Positions 5,913 through 53,232 of a stretch of 54,255 nucleotides of DNA are shown here, one piece after another; the stretch's first letter is position 1; each line of letters starts with the position of its first letter. The DNA is from Candidatus Uhrbacteria bacterium (GTDB taxonomy: Bacteria; Patescibacteriota; Patescibacteriia; UBA9934; GWF2-40-263), in NCBI GenBank assembly GCA_903843045.1, contig CAIMOJ010000027.1, positions 1 through 54,255 of the forward strand, written 5' to 3'. Position numbers and translations under genes: made by a program. The notes beneath the pieces were generated by a model. That model searched no databases. It was not told the origin of the DNA and worked only from the letters and a program-made list of their open reading frames with translations.

Positions 5913-7292
5913 ATGAAGCGCACAAAGATCGTCTGCACCATCGGCCCGGCGTCCGACGCCCCCGCGACATTGTCCGCGATGATCAAGTCCGGGATGAACG
6001 TCGCGCGGCTCAATTTTTCGCACGGGACGCACGCCGGGCACGCGAAGCTCGTGCGGACGATTCGCGCGACGGCGAAGAAAGCGGGCGAAACGGTCGCGAT
6101 CCTCGGCGACCTGCAGGGACCGAAGATTCGGATCGGGGTCGTGCCGGATGCCGGAGTCGTTCTGAGGAACGGCGAGACGGTTACGCTTCCGGTGACGTAC
6201 GCGGCGCTGCACAAGGACGTGAAGAGGGGCGACCGAGTTATGATCGACGACGGGATCATCGAGGTGTCGTACGTGAGCGGGAAGGCCGGGTTCATGACGG
6301 CCAAGGTCGTGAACGGCGGGACGGTCACGTCGCACAAGGGGATGAACTTTCCGGATTCGACCCTTCGCGTTTCCTCGCTGACCGCGAAGGACAAGGAGGA
6401 TATTATTTTTGGTGTTCAACAGGGGGTGGACTGGATGGCACTGTCGTTTGTCACTTCCGCGAAGGACGTGAAGACGTTGCGGAGGTTGATTCGGGAGGCG
6501 AGGAGGGTCGGAGGGTCGGAGGGTCGAAGGTTCGAAGAGCCTCGGATTATTGTCAAAATTGAAAAGCACGAGGCGCTCGACAACTTTGACGAGATTCTGG
6601 CCGCGACGGACGCGGTGATGGTGGCGCGCGGCGACCTTGGGGTGGAGACGCCGGCCGAGGACGTTCCGCTGCGACAGAAGGAGATCGTTGAGAAGTGCCG
6701 CCTCGCGGGAAAGCCCGTCGTCGTCGCGACGCAGATGCTCGACTCGATGATGCGCAACCCGCGCCCGACGCGCGCCGAGGTTTCCGACGTGGCGAACGCG
6801 GTGATTGATCACGCGGACGCGGTGATGCTCTCGGGGGAGTCCGCAAGCGGAAAGTATCCGAGGCAGGCGGTTGCCATGATGGCGAAGATCGTCGTGGAGA
6901 CCGAGGCGTCGAAGTTCGACGACGTGGCCGCCGAGGAGATCGCGGGGTCCGGAGTCGGCGCGCTCAGCGAGACGCTGAAGGCATTCGTGGCGGGAGATCT
7001 CATCTCGGGAATCGTCGCGTCGCATTCGTCCGCCCCCTGGGCGGAGAGGCTCATGATCGCGCGGCCCGAGGTTCCGCTGTTCCTTGCCTGCGCCACGGAA
7101 GCCGAGGCGCGCCAGGTCAGCATCCGCTGGGGCGTGCGTGCATTCGTGCTGAAGTCGAAGTCGTCCGTCGGGTTCGCCGAGAAGGCGATCGCCGAGCTGC
7201 GGGCCCGCAAGTGGGTCAAGAAGGGCGCGCACCTCGCGGTCGTCACGGGGGATGAGAAGGGCGCCGGGTTCGACGTGGCGGTGGCAAGATAA
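5913..7292 (+). CDS. pyk: Pyruvate kinase (carries an in-frame repeat insertion)
   Basis: [61 protein letters not shown]. Confidence 0.97.
6503..6545 (+). repeat. Octamer-unit repeat, solo arm in frame within pyk
   Basis: GAGGGTCG x3, AAGGTTCG, AAGAGCCT, CGG; 6517-6541 is identical to 8381-8405. Confidence 0.85.
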
Positions 7293-7783: not shown

Positions 7784-7812
7784 AGAATAGGCCGAGCCGG
7801 GCAGAATGTCAA
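7784..7812 (-). promoter_or_regulatory. Sigma70 promoter of the 7345-7716 gene
   Basis: TTGACA-N17-TATTCT; the -35 contains the TGA stop of the upstream gene. Confidence 0.7.
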
Positions 7813-9073
7813 TGGACAATTGATTTTCCTACCAGATGCCCGGCCGCCCATGACGCCTGGAGGTTGAAGCCGCCGGTGAACCCGTCCACGTCCAAAATCT
7901 CTCCGGCGAAGTACAGTCCGGGACAAATGCGCGATTCCATGGTCGTCGGGTCCACTTCGGAAAGGTCGACCCCGCCCGCGGTCACGAACTCGTCGCCGGC
8001 GCCGCGCTGGATGACGTGGAGCGGGATCGCCTTGAGCCACGCGGCCGTCCGGGCCATGTCCTTTTTGGCGACCTGGTTCGCGCTCTTTGTTTTGGAAATG
8101 CCAAGGTGGTCGACGACGATGTCGGCCAGGGACTTGGGGACGAGGAGGCCGAGGACGTTGTCGAACCGCTTGTTCGGGTTTGCCGTCGCGACCGTCTCGA
8201 CGCGGGCGCGGAGGGCGTCGAGCGTCTCGTCGGGGAACAGGTCGATAGCGATTTCAAGCGGATTGGCCGCGTCGTACGGCTCGAACGCGACGATGGAAGA
8301 GAGCGCGAACACCGCCGGGCCGCTGACGCCCTTGTGGGTGAAGAGGAACGGGCCGGTGAAGGAGGGGAGGGTCGAAGGGGCGGAGGGTCGAAGGTTCGAA
8401 GAGCCGCGGTTAGAAGAGATTGTGGCGCGCTCGAACGAGAGACCCGAGATTTCCTTTGGCCAGGTCTCGGACGTGAAGAATGCATTGAGGCTCGGAGCAA
8501 GCGCGGTGATCGTGTGTCCAAGCGCCGTGGCAAACGCATACCCGTCGCCGGTCGAACCCGTGTGTCGGTACGCCTGGCCGCCCGTCGTGAGGACGAGTTT
8601 GTCGGCGACGATCGGCTCGGGTGACTCCTTCGTAAAGATAAAAAATTCATCGCCGCGCTTTTCGACGCGGGTCGCGGAAGTTTTCAAAAGGATGCGGACG
8701 TTTGACAGCGCGAACAGTTCCTCGAACGCGCGGACGATGTCGTGGCCGTCGTCGGAGACGGGGAACACGCGGAGGTCGGCCTGCGTCTTGAGCGGGACGC
8801 CGTGCGACTCGAACCAGGCCTCGACCGCCTCGGGCGGGAAGGCGTACATGGCGGAGGTGAGAAACTTTCCCCCGCGCGGATATCTCGCGAGGACGGTCTT
8901 CACGTCGCGGATCCCGGTCGTGACGTTGCAGCGGCCGCCGCCGGAGATGATGACCTTCTTTCCGAGCCCGTCGTTGCGTTCGATCAAAAAGATTTCGATG
9001 GACGGATCGTCCTCGTGCAACGTCGCGGCGGCCATCAGCCCGGCCGCGCCCCCTCCGATGATCGCGACTCGCA

Positions 9074-9077
<4 letters not shown>
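7809..9077 (-). CDS. NAD(P)/FAD-dependent oxidoreductase, HI0933/YhiN/BaiN family (carries an in-frame repeat insertion)
   Basis: IIGGGAAG, GKKVIISGGGRCNVT, LFTHKGVSGP, VTAGGV, GEILDVDGFTGGFNLQ; ATGA overlap with ABC-F stop. Confidence 0.92.
8367..8409 (+). repeat. Octamer-unit repeat, solo arm in frame (antisense reading) within the HI0933 gene
   Basis: GAGGGTCG-AAGGGGCG-GAGGGTCG-AAGGTTCG-AAGAGCCG-CGG. Confidence 0.85.
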
Positions 9078-10825
<1,748 letters not shown>

Positions 10826-27568: not shown

Positions 27569-28636
27569 CTACGGCATCAGCTTGAGGACCAGCGGCGAGT
27601 TGAGCGCGGTCATCTGCTCGGGATGCGCCGCGACGTACGCGACCGCGTCCTCGTAGCGTTGCCACTGCTCGGCTTGCTCCACGTCGTTCTTCGGCTTCGT
27701 GGCGGAGCGGTCGTTCGCCAGCGAAAGATTGAACGGGGGAGACATGGGCTTGGTCCGGTCCGTGCCGTCGTAGTACACGGCGTCCCACGGTGTGCCGGTC
27801 GTATAGAAGTTGTCCTCGTGCCACTTGAGGTTCATAAACCTGAGGCCGGTGGTCGGGAGCTGCGCGATCGCGTCGTTGATCAGGTCCGCGCCGGCGTAGT
27901 GGCCCTTCTTCTCGTATGCCTTCACCTCAAGCGTCTCGGGACGCAGCCACAGGCCGCCTTCCTTCTCCCCGAGCTTGGTCTCGCGTCCGTGCAGCAGCGT
28001 CATCTGCGCGCCCATCCCCATGTAAATTTTTTCGACCGTCGCGGCCACGCCCGCGTTGCCGCCGATCGCTCCGGCCACCGTATACGGGGCGTATCCGATC
28101 CTGTCCTTGAGGAATTGGTATCCTCCCGGCGCGGAGGTCGGGGCGCCGGTCGTCAGGTCGATCGCGTGCGTCTCGTAGCTGGTCAGCAGCGCCGCGAGGT
28201 CGGTCGGCGACATCGCGTCCAATCCGCGCCAGTCGAACCCGAAGTAGTAGGGATAGGGCGGGCGGAGGTGGTAGGATACCGCGACGTCCTTCGAGGACGC
28301 GAGACGCTTGATCAGCTCGGGGGCCTTGGTCGCGTAAACCTGGACGACGGGGTCGTCGAGATAGACGTCGACGGGAACGTGGTACTTCTCATGGATGTCG
28401 ATCACTCGGCCGACGGTCGCGATGCTCTTGTCCGGGCTTGTCCAGTCGTGCACGTTCAGGATGAACGAGACGTACAGCGCGTCCTTGGGAACCGAGGGAG
28501 TCGGGGTTGTCGAGGGGGTCGAAGGGGTCGTCGGGGCGGATGCCTGGGGTTGCGGAGCGTGGCGCGCCGGCGTCGACGAGGCGCATCCGAAGCCGAGAAG
28601 GGCAATGGCGGCGAGAGACAGAATGAGTTTGCGCAT
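27569..28636 (-). CDS. Lipoprotein with polysaccharide-deacetylase-like (NodB-type) barrel
   Basis: Lipobox LLGFGC, P/T/S linker, LNVHDW...DIHEKYHVP...SYH pattern; family call is from motif resemblance only. Confidence 0.55.
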   Translation of the reverse strand: MRKLILSLAAIALLGFGCASSTPARHAPQPQASAPTTPSTPSTTPTPSVPKDALYVSFILNVHDWTSPDKSIATVGRVIDIHEKYHVPVDVYLDDPVVQVYATKAPELIKRLASSKDVAVSYHLRPPYPYYFGFDWRGLDAMSPTDLAALLTSYETHAIDLTTGAPTSAPGGYQFLKDRIGYAPYTVAGAIGGNAGVAATVEKIYMGMGAQMTLLHGRETKLGEKEGGLWLRPETLEVKAYEKKGHYAGADLINDAIAQLPTTGLRFMNLKWHEDNFYTTGTPWDAVYYDGTDRTKPMSPPFNLSLANDRSATKPKNDVEQAEQWQRYEDAVAYVAAHPEQMTALNSPLVLKLMP

Positions 28637-45683: not shown

Positions 45684-45752
45684 TCCCTCGGGACTCCTCC
45701 GGCCCCTGCGCCCACCAGCGCATCGGCCGGTTTTTTGTTATACTGTCTCCGT

Positions 45753-47231
45753 ATGCTCGTGCTTTTTCTCATCGCCGCCCTCGGCTTCCTCATCCTCACC
45801 TTTTTTCGCCCCCTCACCACCCTCGCGATCCTCGCCCTCTACCTCCCGTTCGAATCCGTCCTCCTCAAGCTCGCGCCCGACGAGATCTACGTCTACGCGC
45901 GCTTTTTCTCCGAGGGTCTCATCTACGTCCTCGCCGCGGTCGTCATCTGGCGCGCCCTGACGGGCACCATTCGCCTCCGCTCGACGCAGGCCGACCTTCC
46001 GTTCATCCTGTTTCTCGTCATCCTCCTCGCCTCCGTCGCCATCAACGCCGTCTCGCCGACGATCGCGATTCTTGGCACGCGCCAGATCATCCGGTTCATC
46101 CTCGTGTTTTTTATCGCCGTCCAGCTGAAGCCGACCCGCGACTACGTCCGCAATCTCACGCTTGCCCTGTTCGCGGTCGTCGGCCTCGAGTCTGTCCTCG
46201 GCATCGTCCAGTCGCTCTCCGGCGGATCGCTCGACCCGCTGCTCCTTCCGTCCGACGCGCATTCGCTCGGCGAGGTGACGCTGACCGGCGGCGTCGACGA
46301 GTTCTGGGAGCCGGGGTCGCGAGTGTTCGCGACGCTTGGGCGATATGATCGGCTTGGGAATTTCCTCTATTTCTTTTTGGCATTGGCGGTCGGATTTGCG
46401 TACGAGTTCTTTTTTATGCGTCGAGGGTCCGCGCCAATCTTGGAGAGAGGATCTTCCTGGCGCGCGGAGATCATCGCGCTGTTCGCCGTCGCCATCCCGA
46501 CGCTCATCCTCACCTACTCCCGCGCCTCGTGGTTCGCGTTCCTCCTTGCGTTCCTTTTCGTCGCCATCTGGATCAAGCGCGACCGCCGCGTGATGCTCGC
46601 CGTCGTGACCGTCATCGTCGGGGTTGTCGCCTACGTCGGAATCACAGGCCTGAACGTCCGCTACATCACCGAGGCGCCCGGACAGACGCTCGTGGAGCGA
46701 TTCTATGAGACGTTCAGCTACGCCCGCTGGCGCGGCGAATACTACGGCCTTGGACGCGTCTACTGGATGGTCCAGACCCCGCTCACCGTCGTGGCCGCGT
46801 CGCCGCTCTTCGGCTTCGGTCCCGGCCAGTTCGGCGGGGGAGCGGTCGTGGCGCTTGGCAACACGAAGGTGTACGAGCAGCTCGGCCTTCCGTTCGGCGT
46901 CTTCGGCACCGACGGGATCATCGACAACAACTGGTTCTCGCTCTGGGGCGAGACAGGCTGCCTCGGGATCTTCTTCTTCCTATGGATGTACCTCGGCCTG
47001 ATCGTCCACTGCGTCCGCGTATACCGACAAAGCAACGATCCGTTCGTCCGCGCCCTCTCGATCGGCGTCGCCGCCGCAATGCTCGGCGTCGCCATGAACG
47101 CGTTTTTGTCCACGGTGTTTGAGATCAGAACGCTCGCGTTCTACGTATGGATGTACGCGGGGTTCGTGGTGGTGCTGGGGGAAGGGGAGAATAGGGTTCC
47201 GAGGGGCGAAGGTTCGAAGAGCCTCGGGTAA
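45753..47231 (+). CDS. O-antigen ligase/Wzy_C family membrane protein
   Basis: RVFATLG, LTYSRASW, PLFGFGPGQF, IDNNWFSLWGETGCLG; many TMs; TGtTATACT-N8-ATG; last ~10 codons derive from the repeat arm. Confidence 0.82.
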   Translation: MLVLFLIAALGFLILTFFRPLTTLAILALYLPFESVLLKLAPDEIYVYARFFSEGLIYVLAAVVIWRALTGTIRLRSTQADLPFILFLVILLASVAINAVSPTIAILGTRQIIRFILVFFIAVQLKPTRDYVRNLTLALFAVVGLESVLGIVQSLSGGSLDPLLLPSDAHSLGEVTLTGGVDEFWEPGSRVFATLGRYDRLGNFLYFFLALAVGFAYEFFFMRRGSAPILERGSSWRAEIIALFAVAIPTLILTYSRASWFAFLLAFLFVAIWIKRDRRVMLAVVTVIVGVVAYVGITGLNVRYITEAPGQTLVERFYETFSYARWRGEYYGLGRVYWMVQTPLTVVAASPLFGFGPGQFGGGAVVALGNTKVYEQLGLPFGVFGTDGIIDNNWFSLWGETGCLGIFFFLWMYLGLIVHCVRVYRQSNDPFVRALSIGVAAAMLGVAMNAFLSTVFEIRTLAFYVWMYAGFVVVLGEGENRVPRGEGSKSLG

Positions 47232-47644
47232 CGATATGCTGTTTACCTATAAGGATCTGACTGTTTGGAACAAGGCCGTGGAGTTGGCTGATATTGTCTA
47301 TAAACTGACGAGGTCTTTTCCAACGGAGGAGAAGTGCGGGCTTGTTTCTCAAATGCGAAGATCCGCCGTCTCAATTCCGTCGAATATTGCCGAGGGGCGT
47401 CTGCGAGGCTCCGACAAGTCTTGTCGAAATTTTCTTCTCATTAGCTTCGGTTCCGCAGGAGAACTCGATACGCAGATCCAAATCGCAAAACGGATTCAGG
47501 AAACAGCGAGCCTTGACTTTCGTGTCGCCGAATCTCTCTTGGATGAAATTCTTCGAATGCTCAACCGCATGATCGAACAGTTGTCTGCGGCAGAGCACAC
47601 AAACCAATAAGCCCTCTTCTTGGCTCTTCGAACCTTCGCCCCTC
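47201..47644. mobile_element. IVS-like element: four-helix-bundle gene enclosed by perfect 23-bp inverted repeats
   Basis: GAGGGGCGAAGGTTCGAAGAGCC (47201-23) and its exact reverse complement (47622-44); mobility is inferred, no recombinase present. Confidence 0.65.
47236..47610 (+). CDS. Four helix bundle protein (23S rRNA IVS protein / TIGR02436-like, Avd-related)
   Basis: YKDLTVWNKA, FPTEEK, LVSQMRRSAVSIPSNIAEG, SAGELDTQI; visibly more AT-rich than its neighbours. Confidence 0.92.
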   Translation: MLFTYKDLTVWNKAVELADIVYKLTRSFPTEEKCGLVSQMRRSAVSIPSNIAEGRLRGSDKSCRNFLLISFGSAGELDTQIQIAKRIQETASLDFRVAESLLDEILRMLNRMIEQLSAAEHTNQ

Positions 47645-47670
47645 ATCACCCCTCCGAACCCTTTGCTCGT

Positions 47671-53150: not shown

Positions 53151-53232
53151 GAGGAGGGTTCGTAGGGTTGAGGAGGGTCGAAGGTTCGAAGGGTCGAGGT
53201 TCTTCGAACCTGGAACCCTGGTCACCCTAACC
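53151..53232. repeat. Gene-less palindromic copy of the octamer-unit repeat
   Basis: AGGTTCGAAG (53182-91) / CTTCGAACCT (53202-11) perfect IR, flanked by AGGGTT / AACCCT units. Confidence 0.8.

Follow-up and report, generated by a model that had tools for sequence, protein, structure and literature searches.

A probable truncated copy of a cassette-linked palindromic repeat within the HI0933-like flavoprotein gene of a Candidatus Uhrbacteria genome

The gene for an HI0933-like FAD flavoprotein on contig C27 of a Candidatus Uhrbacteria genome contains a G-rich array of octamers at 8361-8411, which raises the question of how a tandem DNA repeat came to lie inside an intact coding region. The window is this whole contig of 54,255 nt. 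The source genome (G000) is a metagenome-assembled genome (MAG) of 1.28 Mb in 76 contigs, with a GC content of 61% and a completeness of 96%. Genomes of relatives are designated G001-G008, G011 and so on, and L-numbers denote loci of the PF05635 gene family. The array seems to be a copy, truncated to one arm and the apical loop, of a palindromic repeat that is specific to the genus, spreads at the DNA level and is linked to a gene cassette (probability about 0.85). The copy came into the flavoprotein gene as DNA, no earlier than in the common ancestor that the source species shares with G003, its closest congener.

The plus strand at 8361-8411 reads GGAGGGGA GGGTCGAA GGGGCGGA GGGTCGAA GGTTCGAA GAGCCGCGGTT, and the octamer run finishes with GGTTCGAAGAGCCGCGG. 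Read in another register, 8367-8409 is GAGGGTCG AAGGGGCG GAGGGTCG AAGGTTCG AAGAGCCG CGG, which gives the five octamers noticed in a preliminary description of this DNA. Tandem Repeats Finder returns a period of 8 at 8368-8401 and a period of 16 at 8358-8394, and nhmmer matches 8375-8411 to positions 10-46 of the repeat model (E 8e-07). The segment GGGGAGGGTCGAAGGGGCGGAGGG at 8364-8387 of the plus strand, which is the template strand of the flavoprotein gene, also fits the canonical G-quadruplex motif, with four tracts of three or more G and loops of 1-5 nt; related heptamer arrays form G-quadruplexes in vitro (PMC4692102).

The sole open reading frame (ORF) with a coding signature across the array is the flavoprotein gene on the minus strand (7809..9092). 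The peptide read from the minus strand of the array directly precedes LFTHKGVSGP, in agreement with the preliminary description. The protein has both the PF03486 Rossmann domain and the PF22780 barrel/H2TH domain as well as the GxGxxG and LFTHxGxSGP motifs expected of the family, and its relatives in the PDB are 2i0z (E 3.8e-60), 4cnj, 3v76 and 2gqf. Residues L250, F251, T252, H253, G255, S257, G258 and P259 are invariant across 22 aligned HI0933 orthologues drawn from the genus, family and order. The model that AlphaFold built from the orthologue alignment has a mean predicted local distance difference test (pLDDT) score of 85.8, with residues 233-240 below 50. It places the insert in the loop that joins strands 219-227 and 244-251 and forms the tip of a beta-hairpin. 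The loop has 10 aa more than in the congeners, 7 more than in 2i0z and 13 more than in 4cnj. An excess of about 13 residues over E. coli YhiN had been proposed, a figure that holds roughly for the short members of the family.

Extra residues at this position are present only in G000 and G003, which are two of the 22 orthologues. The remaining 20, including those of G001 (91% identity) and G006 (89%), have no insert and show the short turn TA.R....P.F. In a DNA alignment, the empty sites in G001, G006 and G005 read GAAC-TTCGGGCGGCC-GTCGCG. In G000, 42 nt replace about 12 nt, a net gain of 30 nt and 10 residues; the reading frame is preserved, and the sequence on either side aligns collinearly with the orthologues. 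The G003 gene (94% identity) has an insert that reads RRPNNLTPSTPLTPLNPS (PNNLTPSTPLTPLNP), a related 9-mer variant (GGGGTCAAG / GGGGTCGAA) whose peptide differs from that of G000. The insert is a single arm that is common, in variant form, to these two genomes. The 9-mer variant is dispersed in G003 and also flanks a PF05635 gene at G003:C14. The window itself holds a 9-nt-period array of this variant family, which is expanded in G003, at 28493-28530 (CGAGGGGGT x4, including GGGGTCGAAGGGGTC).

These comparisons bear on two simple explanations. Repeats can mislead assemblers and the source is a 76-contig MAG, but a chimera induced by the repeat during assembly is extremely improbable: the frame and the collinearity of both flanks are preserved, the independently assembled G003 carries its insert at the identical position, and about 25 other in-frame copies also keep their ORFs. 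It is also very unlikely that the segment is a flexible Ser/Pro-rich loop selected as protein, with its DNA likeness to the pyruvate kinase gene being secondary. The ORF is intact and the insert has been kept, in frame, in two species; however, it is absent from 20 of the 22 orthologues, it encodes different peptides in its two carriers, and AlphaFold predicts it to be disordered. The same DNA, including the non-repetitive loop GAAGAGCCGCGG, also recurs in both orientations within about 25 unrelated genes, and it is present in the hairpins between genes. A peptide conserved over diverged DNA, which would have spoken for selection on the protein, was not found: the related repeat in G003 has diverged and its peptide is different.

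The pyruvate kinase gene (pyk) of the same window has a sister copy at 6502-6547, composed of GGAGGGTC three times followed by GAAGGTTCGAAGAGCCTCGG. It is the same DNA on the same strand as 8361-8411, but is read in the sense direction instead of the antisense. The preliminary description had argued, from identical DNA giving unrelated peptides in these two genes, for spread at the DNA or RNA level and not for protein selection. Spread at the DNA level is borne out by the whole genome, in which the same DNA is read sense and antisense and in three frames, and occurs in about 25 genes as well as between genes.

An alignment of 14 full copies shows that the complete element is a palindrome of about 80 nt, AGGGTTCGTAGGGGTGAGA GGGTCGAAGGTTCGAAGAGCCGCGGTTCTTCGAACCTTCGACCC ... 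CCCTACGAACCCT. Each arm is a tandem run of 8-nt units (GGGTCGAA / GGTTCGAA), and the loop between the arms reads GAAGAGCCGCGGTTCTTC. In G000, nhmmer finds 16 full copies (model positions ~2-81) and about 25 partial copies confined to positions ~5-46; a partial copy is one G-rich arm that usually continues into the loop GAGCC(G/T)CGG. The number of units per copy ranges from 2 to 5, and slippage probably changes this number. Replication slippage that expanded a native run of G-rich codons separately in each gene, with no transfer between them, would likewise produce tandem units in variable number, yet it is a highly improbable origin for the copies. They have in common a non-periodic end of 17-28 nt, GGTTCGAAGAGCC(G/T)CGG, which is identical to the loop of the intergenic hairpins, and the empty sites of the congeners contain no seed repeat.

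The repeat is largely restricted to the genus. With up to two mismatches, GGAGGGTCGAAGG has 11 matches in the window against 3.6 expected, a count reached by 0 of 100 shuffles. Patterns were also counted in 41 genomes, including the congeners and 28 other genera, with the reversed pattern as control. The pattern GGKTCGRAGGKTCGRAG has 50 matches in G000, 2-10 in each of five congeners, one in a single other genus and none in any other of these genomes, including those of 27 of the 28 other genera; the reversed control gave 0. The intergenic hairpin at 53156-53232 has a predicted RNA fold of -40.8 kcal/mol (z -3.2; 0 of 200 shuffles equally stable). The arms in the flavoprotein and pyk genes show no significant RNA fold (z -1.3 and -1.7). 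An Rfam scan of the window matched the element to no family and returned only a tmRNA and one tRNA above the gathering score. About half of the intergenic hairpins in G000 have CAT or ATG within ~12 nt of the element end; this closeness to start codons may stem from preferred target sites or from a function in 5' leaders.

The full and single-arm copies in G000 differ in location. Reading frames of the copies were assigned from the GC composition of third and second codon positions (GC3/GC2). Of the 16 full copies, 14 are located between ORFs and two within ORFs, in frame with UvrB and RecJ, whereas about 24 of the 28 single-arm copies are within ORFs (Fisher p 2e-6; the coding-like fraction of the genome is ~0.88). 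Orientation within genes, for which the preliminary description had suggested a count, is about 15 sense to about 10 antisense and is not significantly biased (p 0.42). Sense copies are read as a 13-residue peptide or as EGRRFEE, and antisense copies as ..FEPSNLRPS... Since each 8-nt unit shifts the frame, the copies make use of all three frames. Both orientations are viable in genes because, on direct reading, the inner units GGGTCGAA and GGTTCGAA are free of stop codons in all six frames.

The hosts of these copies are housekeeping genes. Single arms are found in two Mur ligases (MurE/F-type), GatA, LigA, WecG-type and glycosyltransferase family 4 (GT4) transferases, TsaD, PheT, a UvrD-like helicase-nuclease, an M16 peptidase, HolB, MiaA, RsmE, RlmH and ClpB. 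They also occur in IleRS, ValRS, ArgRS, LeuRS, pyk and the HI0933 protein. The full hairpin in UvrB is absent from G003 (97% identical), G006, G001 and G005; this copy, which is full-length, is therefore very recent. In LigA, the first insert (ERVEGSKG) is a single arm that is common to G000 and G003 and absent in G006. A second LigA site (C39 7973-8005) was considered as an insertion and rejected, since the length of the gene does not change there. An absolute rule by which single-arm copies exist because genes cannot hold full hairpins was rejected as well; it is contradicted by the in-frame full copies in UvrB and RecJ and by a full palindrome of another family in G006 pyk.

The cassette at 47190-47658 appears to be the source of the arms (Table 1). 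Two inverted G-rich arms enclose a gene of the PF05635/TIGR02436 family, the 23S rRNA intervening sequence (IVS) protein family, which is Avd-like; the gene has a GC content of 48% against 61% for the genome. It occupies the exact place of the loop CCGCGG of the copies without an ORF. On sequence comparison, the palindromic repeat is this cassette minus its gene, because the same inverted arms enclose the PF05635 gene at the loop position. The arms of the cassette family have spread to about 40 places in G000. The left arm (47190-47228) also encodes the C-terminal 13 residues of an O-antigen-ligase-like protein. Two other PF05635 genes in G000 also lie between inverted arrays, with units GGCGCATN (GGCGCAT) and AGGGCTGA. 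Their arms have 0-1 extra copies in G000 and have not spread; thus, the expansion is family-specific.

Table 1. Location of the repeat copies, their host genes and the PF05635 cassette. Coordinates are those of the window unless another contig of G000 is given.
Feature	Location	Strand	Remarks
Single-arm repeat copy: G-rich arm and loop GAGCCGCGG	8361..8411	+	Read antisense, in frame, 17 residues
Host gene: HI0933-like FAD flavoprotein, intact, 427 aa	7809..9092	-	PF03486 E 7.6e-76; PF22780 E 6.9e-24
Sister single-arm copy in pyruvate kinase gene (5913..7292 +)	6502..6547	+	Read sense, 15 residues
Left G-rich arm of cassette	47190..47228	+	Gives final codons and stop of O-antigen-ligase-like ORF 45735..47231
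PF05635/TIGR02436 four-helix-bundle gene, 124 codons	47236..47610	+	Pfam E 1.6e-33; TIGR02436 E 4.9e-32
Right arm of cassette, inverted copy of left	47620..47658	-	Ends 26 nt before ATG of GT4 gene
Full-length intergenic hairpin	53156..53232	.	nhmmer E 5.6e-17, model positions 3-80
Full hairpin in UvrB	G000 C7:11115-11194		80 nt, in frame, +27 residues; reads GIQGDRGFGGSKSLDSSNLRPSEPSAP
Full hairpin in RecJ	G000 C39:14430-14510		80 nt, in frame, +27 residues

Arms of this type are common around PF05635 genes. In relatives across the order, all 18 PF05635 loci examined have inverted arms of 24-45 nt that lie ~370-400 nt apart, and each arm is a tandem array of a unit of its own. A survey across phyla (CPR, the candidate phyla radiation; Bacteroidota; Proteobacteria; Clostridia; Actinobacteria; Planctomycetota; Chloroflexota and others) gave 69 usable loci out of 80 (L110-L189). 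A fixed 60-nt window for periodicity and stops was uninformative at these 69 loci, and aligned arms tested against shuffled controls were used instead. Arms scored above the shuffled controls at 46 of the 69; their period is 7 at 31 of these loci and 8 at six. The upstream arm has stops in all three frames of the gene strand at 32 of the 46 loci, and upstream arms across phyla are usually 7-nt units containing TAG. The loss of stops from the inner units in G000 may allow residence in ORFs in either orientation.

The same sites are used repeatedly among the congeners. The loop of pyruvate kinase between LRRLI..A and P(R/K)IIVKIEKHE is hypervariable. It holds a GGGTCGGA arm in G000, AATCACTC-type arms in G003 and G008, a GCTACACG-type arm in G002, a full palindrome of the AGGCTGAA type in G006 and nothing in G005 and G007. 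When the inserts were scored against cassettes, using the flanks of 30 PF05635 genes in 17 genomes, the best match of the pyk insert was a cassette of its own genome in G000 (L047), G002 (L025) and G008 (L048); the G003 insert gave a tie between its own L043 and L048 of G008. The G003 insert in the HI0933 gene likewise matches the 9-mer arms of its own cassette at G003:C14. Copies of a GAGTGRYN family are scattered through G003, G008 and G011, and G000 has none. In G004, G007 and G002, a further family (SHFSGV.RDG..) occupies the loops of UvrB and LigA. This in-frame family, encoding SHFSGV(R/E)xDG, was also observed in HI0933 (columns ~146-150 of alignment A1), so that it occurs in loops of three unrelated proteins among G002, G004 and G007.

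The intergenic junction occupied by the cassette at 47190-47658 also differs among the congeners. In G002 its occupant is a homologous cassette; G003 and G004 have PF05635 cassettes there, and G005 has nothing. The arms of the G003 cassette are unrelated to those of G000, though the flanks are 91% identical. In G001 and G006 the junction has a DUF559 gene flanked by arms of the BoxC/triplex type. The same few positions have therefore been filled repeatedly; these may be permissive places that survive selection or places overwritten from resident master copies, and the data fit either.

The second of these explanations is possible but rather unlikely. It holds that coding patches are not inserted into but rewritten from a hairpin or cassette master, so that sites are re-used and copies stay near the current consensus; the route could be ectopic gene conversion, copy-choice, or complementary DNA (cDNA) made by a reverse transcriptase like that of diversity-generating retroelements (DGR) with an Avd-like partner. 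Overwriting is consistent with a pyk loop whose family differs among G000, G003, G008, G002 and G006 and matches their own cassette arms, and with an HI0933 site that has the 8-mer in G000 and the 9-mer in G003 despite flanks that are 91-94% identical. The perfect consensus match of the G000 copy, the repeat-like second LigA site with no change in length, and the differing PF05635 cassettes, DUF559 cassette or empty junction of the congeners point the same way. However, a few permissive loops that filter random insertions explain the re-use of sites equally well, and no clear adenine-specific pattern of the DGR type was seen among the copies when judged by eye.

A reverse transcriptase of 365 aa with the DGR-type motifs LGNLTSQ and YADD is encoded in G000 at C9:22033-23399, at a contig end. 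It is divergent to an adjacent Avd-like ORF (NF033474, E 2e-12, below the curated cut-off), and the contig ends inside the locus. The position of this enzyme beside an Avd-like ORF, and the resemblance of PF05635 to the Avd protein of DGRs (PMC10053308), would suit overwriting through cDNA. On the other hand, the gene is single-copy and unlinked to any cassette, the Avd match scores 47 bits against a cut-off of 80, and nothing ties cDNA or the reverse transcriptase to the repeat.

For the preferred reading, in which a cassette-linked palindrome spreads as DNA and leaves a truncated copy in the flavoprotein gene, the following course of events is proposed. Copying would be templated from resident hairpin or cassette copies, either by mobilisation of the hairpin in trans followed by loss of an arm or by template switching that aborts at the hairpin tip. 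The full hairpin would be the newly inserted form, and copies in genes would later lose one arm or be selected to do so. The copies in common with the congener may be single arms because copies in genes lose an arm after insertion. The insert itself would not be a protein motif but a passenger, neutral or mildly deleterious, that persists only where a surface loop tolerates it.

Several observations weigh against this reading. The order of full hairpin first and arm loss later is based on three dated sites only (UvrB, LigA and HI0933). The flavoprotein copy in G000 is identical to the present consensus at 28 of 28 positions, though its site is common to G003, which fits later conversion or re-insertion better than a single old insertion. 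The second LigA site suggests that a few of the weak copies may be chance matches or short conversion tracts. There is no consistent target-site duplication in the 14-copy alignment, where TA or TAA stands beside some copies only. No transposase or other mobilising enzyme was found in G000, in a search that did not include DDE families. A RAYT gene (PF01797, Y1) is also absent from G000, while 6 of 14 control genomes have a match.

A wider proposal is a bacterial repeat system of which PF05635 cassettes would be the autonomous form; arms made of heptamer or octamer arrays would be copied in trans to new sites, and a pentameric Avd-like four-helix-bundle protein would read its own arrays, possibly with a reverse transcriptase. 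This is doubtful and is put forward tentatively. If true, it would account for the hairpins without an ORF, for the heptamer arrays of Xanthomonas and cyanobacteria and for in-frame loops in housekeeping proteins. G000 would then represent the system caught in the act, with a UvrB insertion specific to the species and with pyk loops that match, in each genome, the cassette arms of that genome.

The repeat can be compared with several known systems. The Rickettsia palindromic elements (RPE; Ogata et al. 2000, as reviewed in PMC10969869) are palindromes of ~100-150 bp that are found in frame in unrelated genes at sites compatible with the fold, and are described as encoding a conserved peptide. 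The present repeat seems similar in kind: its palindromes encode no transposase and are dispersed over a reduced genome, some in intergenic DNA and an unusually large share in frame within unrelated housekeeping genes. In-frame copies here number 2 full and about 24 single-arm, and the HI0933 insert lies in a loop of low pLDDT. In contrast to RPE, the element is ~80 nt, is built of 8-nt tandem units and is present in both orientations and all frames, mostly as single arms within genes. The host phylum also differs, being Patescibacteria/CPR, and the arms are tied to a PF05635 cassette, a tie that does not appear in the passage on RPE of that review (PMC10969869). Given the differences in length, unit structure and host phylum, the relation is put forward as an analogy only.

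The cassette resembles the IVS of 23S rRNA. In Leptospira and Coxiella, IVS have a stem, an S23p ORF, excision by RNase III and a lower GC content, and that of Coxiella burnetii is 428-444 nt with a 28-bp stem (PMC4990558). The cassette at 47190-47658 is likewise ~470 nt, with inverted repeats that form a long stem, a PF05635 ORF in the loop and a lower GC content than its host. However, it is located between O-antigen-ligase-like and GT4 genes and not in helix 25 or 45 of 23S rRNA (Rfam finds no rRNA in the window), and its arms have multiplied as hairpins without an ORF and as in-frame coding inserts.

G-rich heptamer arrays have been described with the units GGGAATC in Xanthomonas and GGGGA(T/C)T in Nostoc (Rehm et al. 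2015; PMC4692102). They are often inverted pairs, and the same paper cites three tandem heptanucleotides in Calothrix PCC7601; it links no named gene family to the arrays and makes no reference to S23p or IVS (PMC4692102). The likeness to the present arrays includes lineage-specific, mostly intergenic tandem G-rich units of 7-9 nt, often in convergent inverted pairs, a length that varies between close relatives, and no known function. The PF05635 cassette L044 of a relative has GGGAATC arms. The arrays studied here differ in their 8-nt unit, their linkage to PF05635 cassettes and their frequency in ORFs. Miniature inverted-repeat transposable elements (MITE) also have terminal inverted repeats, a small size and no transposase of their own, like the ~80-nt palindrome without an ORF. 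MITE are further marked by a target-site duplication and by a cognate autonomous insertion sequence whose transposase works in trans; here, TA or TAA flanks some copies only, and the only related element that bears an ORF carries a four-helix-bundle gene and no known transposase. Repetitive extragenic palindromes (REP), in the REP/REPIN-RAYT systems, are short hairpins that amplify within their genome and now and then lie inside genes, and consist of an imperfect palindrome with a GTAG head. The present repeat differs in having arms of tandem units in place of a single GTAG-headed palindrome, and in the lack of a PF01797 RAYT gene in G000.

To our knowledge, in-frame selfish repeats are textbook material only for Rickettsia. 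The present genome extends them to the CPR, an unrelated lineage whose genome is likewise reduced, and at a higher density, with about 26 in-frame copies in 1.28 Mb. What is new is that the inserts are octamer-array arms of an IVS-like four-helix-bundle cassette, mostly present as single arms and in either direction, and that in sister species different arm families return to the same protein loops and intergenic junctions. The filled, empty and swapped sites within one genus, together with coding inserts that match the cassette arms of their own genome and a full insertion specific to one species, provide direct comparative evidence that the arms move and multiply, which was lacking in earlier work on PF05635 cassettes. 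The repeat offers a source for some of the hypervariable loops in CPR proteins. Odd low-complexity loops in CPR enzymes may therefore be scars of repeats and not functional insertions.

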